DNA of 64,000 nt from an uncultured bacterium (lineage in GTDB: Bacteria; Patescibacteriota; Gracilibacteria; Absconditabacterales; Absconditicoccaceae). The stretch lies in NCBI GenBank assembly GCA_963545225.1, contig CAUUID010000001.1, positions 3,175-67,174 on the forward strand, in the 5' to 3' direction. Numbering within the stretch: position 1 is the first letter of the stretch; each line of letters opens with the position of its first letter. Position numbers and translations under genes: made by a program. The notes beneath the pieces were generated by a model that worked only from the letters and a program-made list of their open reading frames with translations, searched no databases and was not told where the DNA came from. This document shows, piece by piece, positions 31,254 to 44,228 of the stretch.

Positions 31254-31538
31254 ATGACGAAAAAGGAGTATATCATTACCTTTCTAGATAAAGTAAAAGA
31301 TATCTGGGAACCGGCAAGAGGATTTGCTGTATTGATGAGGTATGATATTTTTAATGATCAGCAGATTGATACTTTCTTTGAGCTCTTTAAGAGTGTTGTA
31401 CATTCGACAAATGATCAGCAGAGAAAGAGGAAACTCCAGCTTGCGATTGATAATATTGAAGCAATAAAAAGAGAGGAAAAGAAGTCAGAATCAATCCACT
31501 TTGAAAGAGATTTGGATGCGATCCTTACTGAGGCATAA
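31254..31538 (+). CDS. hypothetical 94-aa protein, first gene of the accessory locus
   Basis: Intact ORF with a true TAA stop. No family recognised. Confidence 0.5.
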   Translation: MTKKEYIITFLDKVKDIWEPARGFAVLMRYDIFNDQQIDTFFELFKSVVHSTNDQQRKRKLQLAIDNIEAIKREEKKSESIHFERDLDAILTEA

Positions 31539-31585
31539 TTATTCCCTAAGTATATATCTATTTTTATGATTTATTGTATATTAAG

Positions 31586-34500
31586 ATGAGTAATCCAGAA
31601 ATTAAAAGAGCTGAGGATATTAAGAGAGAGCTTTATCTAGGTGCTGAGAAGGCTAAGAATATTAATGAAAAGATTAATGAAACCGTTGATCAAAAGGATG
31701 TTGAAACGCTTCTTAAGTTTAGGGAGGAGAATGCTGTAGCGCTTAATTTGCTTAAGCAGAATTTTCAGAGTCCAGAATTTCAAAAGAAATTTGATGATGT
31801 CCTTAAAGGTAATCAGGTTTTACTTTTGAAAGAAGCGACAAAACAGGCAAAAACTCAGGAAGATAAAGCAGAGATGGCGGTATATCTCGATCAAAAGAAT
31901 GTTTTTAGTAAATATAATACTGCATTGGCAGATATTTCTGGTTCTATAGCTCAGCTTAAGGAGGAATTGAAAAATCCAAAGGATAGAAAAGATAAGAAAG
32001 CTCTTAAAGCACAGATTGATGAATTAGAAGATTTGGAAAAACAGATTTCTAAGGAGTATGCTGATCTTAAAGCTCGTATTGGTATTGAGATTACTGAGCT
32101 TAATAGAGATATTCTTGTAGATGTTGAGTGATATAATGTGGCAGCACATAATAACTTTAAGGTATCTGGTGCAGAAACTAAAACTGATAAACAGAGGCTT
32201 CATAAGACGGCAAAGGAGGTGAGAAAACTTTTTGAAAAAATGTCAGAAAATGCAGAGCAAAAGTTAAAGCTTCAACCTGCTGAGAAGAAAATTATGAGAC
32301 AATTTGCTGGAATTGTTAGTGATGTGTTAAAACATTCAGAAAAATCTGTGACTTCTAGTGGTGTGCCTGTTGAAAAGTTTATTTTGGATTTGGCTCATAA
32401 TGATAATGTAGCATTTTACACTCCAGAGGATCTTATCAAGAAATTTGAAGATAATGGTTTAGTTATTAAGAAAGAGAGCTGGTGGCAAAGGAGATGGTGA
32501 GAAAGAGGAATTACTTATTTAAAGGATATTTCTAATTTTTATAGAGCAAGCCACGATATTAAGGATGCTGATGCTTATAACTCAGGGGCAAATTTGAGAA
32601 AGTATTTTGATTTAATTAGGCAAACTGGTTCGTTTCAATCAGCTTTGGATACCTTTAATCCAGAAGTGGGAAAGGCCCTAGATTTACGTAAATTGCCTAG
32701 AAATGAGAGATTTGCTAAATTAAAAGAAAGTAAAAATGTGACTAAGGATGATATCGATAAGGTGATGGATCTTTGTCTAGATTTTAACCTGGATGGGATG
32801 ATCGTTTATGGCGATACTGGTATCAAGGGAGGAAATCAGATTAAGGAAATGTTTAGTAAATTTGTTACTCCAGAAGAGAGAAAGCAGGCTTTTGAAAACA
32901 TTTTAAATGCTGTTTCTAAGGCTAATAAGTCTCAATTGCAAGGAAAAAAACTGACTGTAGATGATGTTATTCAGGATTTTGAAACTTTTACTGCAGTTCA
33001 GAATTTTCTTAAGAATCCTCCAATGGATATGAATTATATCCTTAAGTATGGAGATAATGCCTTTGAGGAATATAAAAAGGCGATGGCTGGTAAGAGGCTT
33101 TTAACTCTAGAGGAGCAAAATGAAGAAGATAAGAAGGTTGAAGAAGGTGCTAGAGAGATTATTAAAGAAGTGTGAGATAAAGTGACTGAAATTGAGGCTA
33201 AATCGGCAAAGGCTAAGGCAGAAGGAAGAGATAAAGATGCGGAGAATTACCAGAAGGCAGCTGAAAAGCTTAAAAAACTTAGAGATATGGATGCTAAGCT
33301 TCTTAGAGAAGGACTTAGAGAGGTGTTGGAAGGACAGGCAGCTGCAATTAGGCAGTCTGGACTTGGTGCTGGAGTAGATATTCCGCTTACTAGGATTTTG
33401 AAGGGACTTTCATTTAATTTTGGAGCTAGATACAGCGAAGATGGATCTATCAATGCTGGAGTGAATCTGGCATGGAATGGTAGTGTAGATCTTTCTGCAA
33501 ATGGTAGATTTAAGGGATTTGCTGGAGTTTCTGCTGGAACTAATCTTTTGTCTATCCCAATTCTAGGAGGAAGTGCTGGACTTGGATATACCTTTGAAAA
33601 TTCTAAGCAAGATAAATCGCTTGATGTTAGAAGTGAAAAGACCTTTACGCTTGGTGTTGGAGGTTTAATTGCTCCTAGTGTAATTGGATGGAATATTAAT
33701 ATTGGTGTAGATAGAGATCTTGATGCTGGTAGATTGCAGATGCAGGAAAAGATTAAATCAAGTGTTGGTAGTTTAGTTGTGGATTTGATGAGTTCCTCTG
33801 ACGAAAAAAATTCTGAAAAAAAGTTTACTTGAGAAAAGTATAAATTTGATGAGAAGATTCTTAAGGAGAAATTAGAGGCTAAATATCCGAAAACCAAGAA
33901 AGAAACTCTTGAGACTGCTGTTAAAAATCTTGGTCAGATATTGCAATATTATGATTGAGTTGAAATGAATGAGGCTAATGTTTCTTTGATTGCTGAGGAA
34001 ATTTCGACCGCATATTCTCAGGCTTGGTCAAATATGCAGGCGCTTAAACTTGCTGATAAGGGATGGTATATTTCTGGAGCTGGGCTTTCAGTTAGCTTTT
34101 TCCAAGGAGTGATCCCAGTAGTTGGAATTTTGAAGTTTGCAAAGCATAGATTTCATGGGTCTTCTGATACAAAAGAATCAATTCAGAATTTTATTGATAT
34201 GAGAGAGGCATGAAAGTGAAATAGAGAGCTTGTGGATGAGAACTTGAGCAATAATTTGATCGCTCTTGAGCAGCAGCTTGGCGTTGAAAAAGGAACACTT
34301 TTGCTTGTAGCTGATCAAGATGGAGCTGCCGTTGAAGAATGAAAAGATGCTGATTATATTCAGATTTCTTTAGATAAGTTGCTTGCAAAATCAAATATTG
34401 CTTTGAATTCAGCGATTAAGCAGAATATAAAAATTGATAAAGAAAAAAGGACGATTATCGTTCATAAAAATACTCTTTTGAGAGCTTCAAGTGGATATTT

Positions 34501-42019: not shown

Positions 42020-43093
42020 ATGGAGTATTTTCTGTTTGGGTTGATTATGGTTTTCGTTTCTGTAGGTGGGCTTTTGCTTTTTAAGAAGTTACACGTACTT
42101 GATAAACCATGAAGTGATCTAAAAAATACAAGAAAACCTGTGCCTACCTTACAAGGTGTGTTTGTAATTTTGGGTTTGATAATTGGTGTTGGAGTGCTGT
42201 ATCCAGAATATTTCTCTTCTAGATTATTCTTATGATTATTGATTCCGGGGCTCTTGATAGGAGTGGTAGAACTCATTGAGGAGCTTAGTTATTTGGGAAG
42301 ATTTCCTAAAATACCGCCGTTTGTTAGGTTGATCGTGCATTTTGTTTCAGCTTTTTTGGCTGTTTGGATCGGTGGAATTGGTAATCAGGAATTGATTTTG
42401 TGATCTGAGGTTTATCAGATTCCAAACTGGATTTTCACGATTGGGTTTATGATTTGGACGATGTTTTGTATCAATGCTATCAATCGATTTGATGGGATCT
42501 ATGCACAGGGGAGTTGAGTTTCAGCGATTGGATTTTTGACAGTTTTTCTTTTGATAAAGTATATTGTGTTTCAGAGTTATACAGAATTTCCAAACTTGGA
42601 GGTGCTGACTATGGTTCAAAATCTAGCTTTTTTCTTGTTTGTAACTAGCATGATTTATGCAGTGATTGAGTTTAAGCCTCTAGGGCTCGTAAGAGATGTT
42701 GGGATTATGTTTTTTGGTTTCGCACTCGCTTATTTGGCTGTGGCTGGAGGTGCCAAGATTTGAACCCTAATTGTCGCGCTTTCTCTTCCGATTTTTGATG
42801 CGATATGGGTTGGATTGTATAGGATTTTTATCTTGAGGAAAAATCCACTGAAAGGAGATTATACGCACTTTCATCATAGACTTCTGGGGCTTGGCTTGAC
42901 AAGAGGTGAGACAAGGGCATTTATTCGAATTTGGTCCCTTATGATGATGGTGCTGATGTTGCTCCAATGAGCAAATAGATTTTCAAAGGTTGTGATTTTT
43001 GCGATGATGGCAATGCTGTTTTTCGGGGTGAATTGGTATTTGTTTATTTATAAAAAACTCCCTTGTGGACTTGCGATCCAAAAGGAGAGATAA
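42020..43093 (+). CDS. glycosyltransferase family 4 polyprenyl-phosphate sugar-1-phosphate transferase (WecA/MraY-like)
   Basis: Polytopic membrane protein with NAINRFDGI (NAxNxxDG) and THFHHRL motifs. 357 aa with several in-frame TGA. TAA stop at 43091. Confidence 0.75.
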
Positions 43094-43115
43094 AAGTCTG
43101 AATATTCAGACTTTT
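43092..43115. terminator. perfect palindromic bidirectional terminator
   Basis: AAAAGTCTGAA-TA-TTCAGACTTTT fills the whole gap between two convergent stop codons (43091-43093 and 43116-43118). Confidence 0.75.
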
Positions 43116-44228
43116 TTAGTTCGTTTGATTTATATATTCTTGTAGTCCATAATTATAGCATTGTCCTTTGTGATAATCAAGGTAGACTTCGTATCATCCC
43201 TTTTTTTTATCGATTTCTACTTCAATACTTTTAAGTAAAGTATTGAAATTTTCGTAATTTTTTGATTTTTTTTCATTTTCAATAACTTCATTTACTCATT
43301 TTGTGAACTCAGGTATATTCTTTACTTCTCCCTGGTTCTCGTATTTATCAATAGTTACTCGATATTTTAGAACCTTTGTTGCATAATCGGTCCAACTACG
43401 TCCAGAATATCTGTTAAGAGCTAATATTCGTGCGTCTTTTCAGTCTTTAGGATTGTATTTACTTTTTAAAAATCTTGCTGCACAATCTACTGCAAGTATA
43501 GGGTGCCATCTTTCATCATACTTATAAAGTGTTTTTAGGTCTGTTGTTTTTTTGTATTGTTCTATAATTTTGGCTCCTAATAATGTGTCTTGCATTTTTT
43601 TGCTATTTTTTTCTCCTGGAGTTGTTTGGAGAACTTTTAGTCCAAAATCTTCGGCATTTGCACCTTGGATATGAATTAATCCAAGACCTCAGTCTGATTT
43701 TGAAATTTCAATATTCCCTGTTACTGGATTCGTTTTTCGATTTAATATATTAGGTAAAGTCGGGTCTCCTGCTCATTCTTGTGCCATCATTGCCAATAGA
43801 ATGTTCTTGGGGAGTTCATATTTTTCTTCAACTGCATCTGTGATGAGTTTTCGTCTTAAGCATCTTAGAATTTTCTCTTCTGGAGATATTTTTCACTGTA
43901 TTAAATTTTCTTGTGATAGTTTTGGAAACCTTATGAGATTGGGTTTATACTCTTTATTCATTTCTTCGTATCCAAGATCTATTGGTTTCTTTTTGAGTTC
44001 TGCTTTTGAAAGTTCTTTTTTTGGAGTTACTTGTTCAATTTTCTCTTTGGTGGTGTCCGTATTTCTATTTTCACAGCTAGAGAGACCTCAAGTAAGACTT
44101 AGTCCAATTAATGCTGCGGTCAATCCCTTTCTTGCTTTTGTTTGGATGGTTTCTAGTCGCTCTTTTGTTTTTCATGCTTTGTTTACTTGTATTTCTTTGT
44201 TTTCACTTGATTGTTTGTTTATCTTCAT
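43116..44228 (-). CDS. lytic transglycosylase (SLT-domain) lipoprotein
   Basis: 370 aa with TGA=Gly. Lipobox LTGGLSSC. ILLAMMAQEGAGDP (catalytic Glu context) and GGLGLIHIQ resemble SLT motifs. The plus-strand track ORF 43801..44247 is antisense to it. Confidence 0.65.

Follow-up and report, generated by a model that had tools for sequence, protein, structure and literature searches.

A conserved operon of Absconditabacteria pairs a leaderless giant protein with a cassette-variable giant adhesin and is a candidate locus for cell-surface contact

The object of this analysis was a 64,000-nucleotide stretch of DNA (the window) from an uncultured bacterium of the family Absconditicoccaceae (GenBank assembly GCA_963545225.1, contig CAUUID010000001.1, positions 3,175 to 67,174 of the forward strand), and in it a locus of five genes at positions 31254–44228. 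Two of them encode giant proteins, giant A (g45, 1614 amino acids, aa) and giant B (g46, 1788 aa). A small gene, g44, precedes them, and two further genes follow: g47, which is GT4/WecA-like, and g48, a lipoprotein gene with weak SLT similarity. Positions are those of the window, and features lie on the plus strand unless marked otherwise. The five genes had been listed in an earlier note on this DNA, and gene calls under genetic code 25 match that list exactly. Judged by its gene order in relatives, g44–A–B–GT4 is an ancient, conserved operon of the Absconditabacteria (SR1) and not a recent insertion, and both giants vary between close strains by the exchange of whole cassettes. The reading favoured here, with slightly better than even confidence, is that the operon makes a contact structure at the cell surface that differs from strain to strain.

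The age of the operon can be read from its neighbourhoods. When one representative genome of each GTDB species was searched with an alignment of g44, 33 g44-like loci emerged, including oral “candidate division SR1” metagenome-assembled genomes at 97–100% identity and the complete genome RAAC1_SR1_1; these matches place the window in the human-oral Absconditabacteria. In nine of the 33, g44 is followed by giants A and B. In the complex of close relatives around the window, the order is secY – g44 – A – B – GT4, then either the SLT gene or one of 348 aa, and finally nrdD. The succession of g44, A, B, and GT4 is kept in at least three further oral lineages; in L003/L013 and L050, the full order is infA-rpsM-rpsK-rpsD-rpoA-rplQ-rplM-rpsI-adk – g44 – A – B – GT4, with an SLT gene at the end in L050. 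A distant SR1 locus (L054) carries rpsD-rpoA, a giant A of 2353 aa, and a gene for a secreted Cys-rich protein; the locus L049 has an nrdD fragment, a peptidase gene, giant A, and again a secreted Cys-rich protein; and the locus L052 pairs a giant A of 2142 aa with a secreted g46-like protein. In a locus labelled Gracilibacteria (L053), an A-like gene, a 53-aa open reading frame (ORF), and a gene for a secreted DUF4215/CGDG-repeat protein (E = 5e-19 to g46) are followed by secE-nusG. The earlier note had set synteny and co-occurrence of the two giants as the check on its proposal, which was to fall if the two never co-occurred; the proposal passes, since giant A stands together with a secreted B in every lineage examined, mostly beside core translation and secretion operons.

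The same comparison changes the history of the locus. The earlier note had seen an accessory locus inserted after secY in place of the usual adk…rplQ continuation. The absence itself is real: homologs of adk, infA, rpsM, rpsK, rpsD, rpoA, and rplQ were not found anywhere in the 64-kb window. Nevertheless, because the module follows adk/rpsI or rpoA in other lineages, its adjacency to ribosomal operons is ancestral, and what changed in the window's lineage was the arrangement of the ribosomal operons, rather than the module being inserted. A separate observation concerns L053 (JALNXF010000001.1), where PrgI-like and TraC-like genes (type IV secretion-related) at 5276–6426 lie 1.6–2.7 kb 5' of the giant pair.

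Between close strains, the giants stand out from everything around them. When the window was compared with the loci L001 and L004 of the same complex, ribosomal proteins, SecY, g44, the GT4-like protein, and NrdD were 98–100% identical; giant A was only 40% and 70% identical, and giant B could not be aligned over its first ~180 residues. Substitution rates were calculated by the Nei-Gojobori method under code 25. The flanking genes have synonymous divergences (dS) of 0.03–0.18, nonsynonymous divergences (dN) of at most 0.013, and dN/dS of at most 0.1 (one low-count rplO pair aside). For g45, the corresponding ranges are 0.29–1.36, 0.08–0.57, and 0.28–0.42, and for g46 the dN/dS is 0.11–0.43; the dS of the giants is 3–12 times the flank value. 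The divergence of the flanks does not follow the allele type: secY has the same dS, 0.117, whether the strain compared is of type 1 or of type 2.

Sliding windows and the clustering of 85 alleles divide this variation into cassettes. In giant A, an N-terminal cassette (A-N, residues 1–320; 31586–32545) has 3–4 types with 32–44% identity between the main ones, the core (A-core, residues 321–1040) has two types with 39% identity, and a C-terminal cassette (A-C, residues 1041–1520; 34706–36145) has four types with 37–65% identity. Within a type, the nonsynonymous polymorphism (pN) of the core is only 0–0.04, except for a variable patch at codons 481–560. Giant B has an N-terminal cassette (B-N, residues ~1–180) and a middle cassette (B-M, residues ~1200–1500), which are swapped between strains at 15–27% and 37–60% identity, while its stalk is 90–100% identical within the complex. 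On core type 1, A-N and A-C are met in every pairing, and each of the four pairings of A-C with B-M was found as well, so the cassettes must reassort by recombination. The raised dS and the discrete, old allele classes suggest a long-maintained polymorphism or import from diverged lineages. Surface antigens and receptors leave such a pattern; relaxed constraint does not.

Loci of this kind, with surface antigens shuffled as cassettes, are familiar from other bacteria: the S-layer genes sap of Campylobacter fetus, PspA/CbpA of pneumococci, and the pilin and Opa of Neisseria. The resemblance lies in a few diverged classes in a near-identical background, mosaic structure, free reassortment, and raised dS as well as dN. 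Unlike those systems, the variation here lies between strains at a single expressed locus, and the window showed neither a silent cassette archive nor an invertible element.

These data bear directly on a reading that was judged very unlikely, in which giant A is a cytoplasmic scaffold, a cytoskeletal element, or an assembly factor for giant B, and has diversified through relaxed constraint and hitch-hiking with the adhesin gene. No member of the giant A family has a signal peptide, the N-terminal half of the protein is charged and helical, the position beside translation and secretion operons is conserved, and dN/dS stays below 1 throughout, all of which would suit a cytoplasmic protein. However, discrete ancient allele classes with raised dS are unlike relaxed constraint, and simple hitch-hiking is excluded because the cassettes of giant A recombine independently of those of giant B. 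The β core is under strong purifying selection within each type, as the low pN indicates, and the Gly-rich, amphipathic, porin-like β-meander predicted for it would be unusual for such a scaffold.

Giant B (36476–41842) is a predicted Sec-exported fibrillar adhesin, and the earlier description of it as a secreted repeat adhesin holds. Read from the sequence, its signal consists of hydrophobic residues 1–26 and then TFA|A, and this is the only hydrophobic segment of the protein; the repeats that follow are of the DUF11/CLIPPER type. The CLIPPER/DUF11 family PF01345 scores 118.4 bits against a gathering threshold of 24.6, in three stretches, TIGR01451 scores 82 bits, and RrgB_K2N_iso_D2 (TIGR04226, RrgB-type) is matched as well. 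Two clear CLIPPER repeats keep intact Lys-Asp-Asn triads (K296/D333/N387 and K466/D502/N556), with a K→N spacing of 90–91 compared with 91 in the crystallised CLIPPER domain 9IFR; from these triads, isopeptide bonds are predicted. In fibrillar adhesins, CLIPPER has been verified by experiment as a stalk module with an isopeptide bond (PMC12617251). From the N-terminus onwards, the layout is a Cys-rich tip cassette (aa ~24–180; 36545–37015; the protein has 30 Cys in total), a conserved stalk of CLIPPER repeats and RrgB-type isopeptide domains (aa ~291–1180; 37346–40015), a poly-Gly hinge (aa 1207–1229) with the second variable cassette (aa ~1201–1520; together 40076–41035), and a conserved C-terminal domain (aa ~1521–1788; 41036–41839). 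The last is the best-conserved part of giant B across lineages (60–77% identity between distant ones) and is a candidate base or anchor; the C-terminal 560 aa gave no match in Pfam.

Giant B shares with the CLIPPER/CnaB-type fibrillar adhesins (PF01345; PMC12617251) a signal peptide, tandem CLIPPER repeats, triads, RrgB domains, length, and a variable distal region. It differs from them in having no known adhesive tip domain and no LPXTG, transmembrane (TM), or sorting signal, and in having a poly-Gly hinge, an uncharacterised C-terminal domain, and a constant leaderless giant as partner.

That partner, giant A (31586–36430), has no signal peptide, as the earlier note had stated, and only 12 sense codons lie 5' of its ATG. 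Searches of Pfam (in tiles, down to E = 10), NCBIfam, PDB sequences, PADLOC, and PHROG gave no match. It is no orphan, however, and neither is g44, although both had been called so: a profile search over 1.8 billion representatives returned ~100 homologous clusters for giant A, and the g44 family comprises 441. There are 87 close homologs of giant A. Around 30 of the ~100 clusters are full length (1300–2350 aa), and nearly all are Trp-rich, as code-25 genes become when they are read with table 4. Their sources are labelled SR1, and the weakest match is labelled Gracilibacteria. By these searches, giant A is the founding member of a new, uncharacterised family.

The layout of giant A comprises a charged helical N-terminal half, a β core, α/β C-terminal domains, and a disordered tail rich in Gly, Pro, and Thr. 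With a three-clade alignment, AlphaFold2 (AF2) reached a mean pLDDT of 54.5, and the fold search was uninformative. The addition of ~27 distant homologs brought the mean up to 78.0; of 1000 residues, 770 reached at least 70. The model contains ~12 long β-strands, mostly of 12–14 residues, at a pLDDT of ~70–90. Strands 1–6 (aa 608–616, 622–635, 642–653, 657–669, 684–696, and 699–711), with a short strand at 595–600, form β block 1 (aa 595–711; 33368–33718), which is Gly-rich, amphipathic, and the best-conserved part of the family. Strands 7 and 8 (aa 828–839 and 848–861) make a β hairpin (aa 828–861; 34067–34168), which holds the only window of giant A with a Kyte-Doolittle hydropathy (KD) above 1.5. 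Strands 9–12 (aa 1452–1465, 1470–1483, 1495–1511, and 1514–1526) form block 3 (aa 1452–1526; 35939–36163), the second segment kept in distant members. Helical and α/β insertions of 115 and 590 residues divide the strands into these three groups, and distant homologs conserve only the β segments. The low-complexity tail (G/P/T/D/N; aa ~1535–1614; 36188–36427) has a pLDDT below 50 where the modelled fragment runs out, at aa 1545, and its assignment also rests on composition and on the C-termini of 40 family members.

Family-wide, the strands mostly alternate between hydrophobic and polar residues, with 14.5% Gly and 13% charge compared with 29% in the whole protein. The segments that the earlier note had taken for putative membrane-inserting ones are not TM helices but predicted long amphipathic β-strands. 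The odd-numbered strand connections are tight (5, 3, 2, 8, 4, and 2 residues), while the even-numbered ones (6, 14, 115, 590, and at least 11 residues) lie on the same face as both termini. Classical outer-membrane proteins have the opposite arrangement; this one is like that of hairpins inserting into a membrane from a single side. In Foldseek searches, the matches of highest probability, all local and non-significant, were TM β-barrels (KdgM 0.80, BamA 0.77, and a designed TM barrel 0.69), and those in a second library were viral barrels resembling outer-membrane proteins (0.98, 0.90, and 0.77). Taken together, the model suggests a porin-like, ~12-stranded β-meander as the core of giant A.

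When compared with the β-barrels of outer-membrane proteins (KdgM and the Omp85/TpsB proteins BamA, FhaC, and CdiB), giant A has in common ~12 long predicted strands, antiparallel and amphipathic, in which Gly, aromatic, and small polar residues abound, and its gene lies beside that of a giant exoprotein, as in two-partner secretion. In contrast to them, it has no signal peptide, POTRA, terminal β-signal, or significant sequence or fold match, its termini and long insertions are on the same face, and its strands come from three segments separated by the 115- and 590-aa insertions. The lineage hosting the locus is regarded as lacking an outer membrane. With regard to two-partner secretion, no Omp85/ShlB, POTRA, or haemagglutination-activity family was found in g45 (tiles to E ≤ 10) or g46.

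Two possible signals at the ends of giant A were considered. A C-terminal NP[LVA][G/D][LIV] was rejected as a family sorting signal, being present in only 9 of 40 members. The first 25 residues are identical between N cassettes that are otherwise 31% identical; no claim of an export signal is made for them, since a recombination breakpoint just inside the gene is the simpler explanation. The tail itself ends in one of two ways, “…ENPL[D/G][V/L]” or “…GGGG(S)GR” (g45 aa 1600–1614; P0086 versus P0087; giant A of L001), and both classes are present in the window's complex and in a distant lineage from a Human Microbiome Project (HMP) sample. This may reflect trans-lineage polymorphism or inter-lineage recombination, and a low-complexity sequence is weak evidence for either.

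The small gene g44 (31254–31538) encodes a helical protein of 94 aa. It is 98% identical among loci of the same complex and 52% identical to distant oral lineages, and its dN/dS does not exceed 0.09. Among the 120 listed clusters of the family, nearly all are 92–105 aa long, and in none is the g44 domain fused to a large protein. Searches of Pfam, NCBIfam, and PHROG gave no match, and no WXG or known chaperone signature was found in Pfam or NCBIfam; a marginal match of g44 to PtuB (E = 0.0017 over 60 aa) among the PADLOC models of anti-phage defence was taken as noise. In most of the other g44-like loci with enough 3' sequence, a gene of ~96 aa is followed by a different leaderless, hydrophilic ORF of 800–1140 aa, and such pairs are sometimes present in 2–3 copies per locus. 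Homology between giant A and these partners was rejected (hhalign probability below 1%), and the partners, like g45, match no PADLOC model. Across Pfam, NCBIfam, PDB, PADLOC, and PHROG, searches with the proteins of the locus (the termini of g46 among them), these partners, and the gene that can replace g48 gave nothing further. By all appearances, the g44 family is specific to Absconditabacteria, and its members always stand immediately 5' of a large protein that lacks a leader. The recurrence of a small helical protein with a large leaderless one suggests a chaperone or adaptor role, and we infer only that g44 may be a chaperone or export adaptor dedicated to the leaderless giants.

Pairs of a chaperone and a leaderless substrate are known from the Lap/LXG proteins of type VII secretion systems (T7SS) and the class I chaperones of type III secretion systems (T3SS). 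The likeness consists of a helical protein of ~95 aa encoded directly 5' of a large leaderless protein, unrelated partners, and several copies per genome. Unlike in those pairs, neither g44 nor g45 matches WXG100, Lap, or LXG, g44 matches no known chaperone family, and a cognate secretion ATPase was not identified. Such pairs invite a further reading that was considered quite unlikely: giant A would be a leaderless effector or pore-former aimed at the host bacterium, with g44 as its chaperone and giant B serving adhesion only. That a small, conserved helical protein recurs directly 5' of large leaderless ones, several times in a genome, would fit this, as would the strong allelic diversification, the porin-like local fold matches, and a β-meander with only tight turns on one face, the topology of one-sided hairpin insertion. 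On the other hand, neither a toxin or enzymatic domain nor an immunity gene was found, and no secretion-system genes are present among the inspected ORFs of the window, where no systematic scan was made. The variation lies in N-terminal and internal cassettes and not in a C-terminal toxin module, and g44 has no signature of the expected kind.

In the RAAC1_SR1_1 genome (CP006913.1, L028), two g44-like genes each precede a large ORF without a leader, of 561 aa and 1116 aa, at 6109–13643 and 15768–18188. The pairs lie ~2 kb upstream of genes whose products have N-termini that by eye resemble a PilB/GspE-type ATPase and a PilC-type platform protein. These neighbours could be an export route for leaderless proteins or a coincidence.

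The genes after giant B concern the envelope. The product of g47 (42020–43093; 357 aa) is a polytopic membrane protein with nine hydrophobic windows of KD above 1.5, which fits a polytopic topology of ~10–11 TM helices. It matches the wecA model TIGR02380 at E = 1.5e-9 over residues 20–340 of 346 positions, with 37.5 bits against a cutoff of 326, and a PDB sequence search found no solved relative. It is likely a distant superfamily homolog of the polyprenyl-phosphate sugar-1-phosphate transferases. The gene adjoins giant B in each of the four oral lineages compared, with 98% and 71% identity in relatives, E = 1e-182 in L050, and a dN/dS of 0.05–0.07. The next position is less constant. In the window, L004, and L050, it holds a convergent SLT-like lipoprotein gene, which in the window is g48 (43116–44228, minus strand; 370 aa, with a lipobox). 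Its motif “AQEGAG…GLGLIHIQ…NRYSG” resembles by eye the E-S / GLMQ / AYNxG motifs of SLT, and no relative was found in PDB. In many other strains of the complex, such as L001 (21983–23029), L042, and L044–L047, the position is occupied by an unrelated, co-oriented (plus-strand) gene of 348 aa, with one hydrophobic segment and no family match. The slot after the GT4-like gene therefore appears to be an accessory position for exchangeable genes.

Signals in the DNA frame the operon. The S10-spc cluster (tuf … rplO, secY) lies 5' of the locus, and the terminator that the earlier note had placed after secY is confirmed as an intrinsic terminator at 31073–31110, with a 16-bp stem, a 6-nt loop, and a T-run. 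The best sigma-70-like match of the region follows at 31188–31215 (ATGACA-16-TATAAT, 11 of 12 positions, 39 nt 5' of g44); promoter-like sites in the region are not above shuffle expectation in total, so that this is a consensus match only, whose promoter role is inferred from position. A second intrinsic terminator (16-bp stem and T-run) stands 3' of giant B at 41862–41897. Between the promoter-like site and this terminator, g44, giant A, and giant B are shown as one predicted unit, which bears out the co-oriented, co-transcribed appearance of the giant pair, and an Rfam search of the locus found no structured RNA. The codon adaptation index (CAI) of the locus genes is 0.55–0.59, slightly above that of most other genes (0.38–0.53), and their use of TGA for Gly is 0.18–0.25 compared with 0.04 in ribosomal genes. 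These proxies of expression are intermediate and do not separate the readings.

An alternative that is unlikely but deserves attention is an envelope or S-layer-type (surface-layer) scaffold, glycosylated by the GT4-like enzyme, in which phage or immunity drives the variation and the attachment partner is not set by the module. The adjacency to highly expressed operons, the strong promoter-like site and terminators of the locus itself, the slightly raised CAI, the WecA-like initiating transferase beside the structural genes, and the existence of phages of oral Absconditicoccaceae would all be at home there. Leaderless S-layer proteins with cassette variation are indeed known, namely the Sap proteins of Campylobacter fetus. 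However, a Pfam search gave no SLH, S-layer, or cell-wall-binding domain, TGA-Gly shows none of the avoidance seen in ribosomal genes, and the domain grammar of giant B is that of a fibrillar adhesin and not of a lattice former. The scaffold also overlaps with the contact structure and differs from it mainly in the selecting agent.

If the operon does build a contact structure, its parts could be arranged as follows. Giant B would be the exported, isopeptide-hardened fibre, with a variable Cys-rich tip, the stalk, the poly-Gly hinge, the second cassette, and a conserved base. Giant A would be its cell-proximal partner and a candidate for the membrane- or envelope-embedded element, because its bulky domains and termini are on one face and only tight turns are on the other. 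g44 would act as the chaperone or export adaptor of giant A, g47 would start a lipid-linked glycan for the envelope or for glycosylation of the fibre, and the slot gene, SLT lipoprotein or 348-aa protein, would be an exchangeable accessory. Variation might be kept by frequency-dependent selection at the cell surface, through the choice of host bacterium, phage, or human immunity, and the module would set what a strain attaches to. The attachment or attack module envisaged in the earlier note is supported in part, namely by the paired occurrence of the giants, by the type of adhesin, and by a cassette variation such as a module for the surface or for host interaction would be expected to show.

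Several points weigh against this arrangement. None of the ~30 full-length members of the giant A family has a signal peptide, no export system was found for it, and giant A could be cytoplasmic. Its AF2 model was made for a database ortholog (P0001, 96% identical to g45) with Trp at the TGA-Gly sites, and Foldseek searches of PDB and BFVD gave no significant match (E ≥ 0.17). In giant B, no cell-wall sorting or anchor signal (LPXTG, C-terminal TM) is recognisable. Cassettes of giant A and giant B do not co-vary, as interacting partners might, since all combinations are found, and there is therefore no direct sign that the two giants interact. The “same species” in which the cassettes vary is a tight complex judged from flanking genes only, and GTDB splits its loci into six species representatives. 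Of the two envelope enzymes proposed earlier, g47 scores 25.9 bits with PF00953, under the gathering score of 27, and g48 scores 18.6 bits with PF01464 (E = 0.0014), under 21.3. Because the scores fall below curated thresholds, GT4 and SLT are superfamily-level resemblances only; the resemblances stand, and the SLT gene is not fixed in the module.

A bolder version of the contact structure, given a distinctly low probability as a whole, makes giant A a leaderless, self-inserting β-barrel that, with g44 as adaptor, leaves the cell by an unrecognised exit route and pushes six tight hairpins into the host envelope to form a host junction. This would be an anchoring or feeding junction for an episymbiont unable to make its own lipids and nucleotides, and the alleles of A and B would be “host-range serotypes”.

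Giant proteins of this bacterial group have been discussed before. Those of Vampirococcus lugosii and Strigamonas methylophilicida have been proposed to serve host recognition and attachment (PMC8080830, PMC13059738). They are from the same group, are very large, and include the DUF11 and α2-macroglobulin types. These papers list the giants by size and domain; they contain no account of the operon, the giant A and g44 families, the conserved position, or the allelic cassettes. Searching the literature brought up no more than general remarks on giant surface proteins of the group. A marine Gracilibacterium has a hypervariable gene with PTD repeats, which was considered as a counterpart and is unrelated.

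The rest of the window supplies context. Translation with TGA as a sense codon raises the summed length of ORFs of at least 150 aa about threefold, from 8467 to 27317 aa. TGA codons fall at invariant Gly positions of the Walker-A region of AtpD (F1-β) and of a second conserved motif, and GGN and TGA codons are intermixed in the poly-Gly run of g46, so that the window uses code 25 instead of code 4, with TGA read as Gly. In public SR1 protein sets, TGA is read as Trp (table 4), with Trp inflated to 4–7% and placed at conserved Gly sites; this mistranslation impairs alignments, structure prediction, and pattern searches across the whole SR1 lineage. On the 3' side, the locus is followed by nrdD-nrdG, the ATP synthase operon, and a third giant, g61 (55678–61824; 2048 aa), which has a lipoprotein signal and is a bacterial α2-macroglobulin with MG2, A2M, bait-region, and MG10 domains. 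This class was reported among the giant envelope proteins of Vampirococcus, with a possible role in defence against proteases. Within the ATP synthase operon, tandem ORFs of 64 aa (51103–51297 and 51340–51534) are identical in their N-terminal 40 aa (MSGVLALAAAGSFAALAMAVIGYSWLTGISRNPEASKEMF…), which suggests that the gene for the c subunit was duplicated in tandem. Two antisense ORFs, g43 (74 aa, 31052–31276, minus strand) and g32 (108 aa, 24960–25286, minus strand), are conserved in relatives because they overlap conserved sequence (the secY-g44 spacer and the rpmC-rpsQ region, respectively) and are almost certainly not genes. Finally, positions 1–6900 carry minus-strand genes, a tRNA-Thr (5486–5558), and uncharacterised ORFs, with a higher GC content (0.39–0.40) and a GC skew of about zero or negative compared with +0.2 to +0.37 elsewhere; such features might mark a switch of the replication strand or an element that has integrated.

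The locus speaks to the question of how ultrasmall bacteria that depend on a host, the SR1/Absconditabacteria among them, recognise their hosts and stay attached to them, and it is a concrete, conserved, and easily typed candidate. Adhesins of the CLIPPER kind were already known; what is new is that a novel, conserved protein accompanies such an adhesin at a variable surface locus, and two uncharacterised protein families, giant A and the g44-like proteins, are defined along with it. The hosts of human-oral SR1 lineages are barely known. Typing of the alleles makes host specificity testable, which may interest specialists in the candidate phyla radiation (CPR) as well as those in the oral microbiome.

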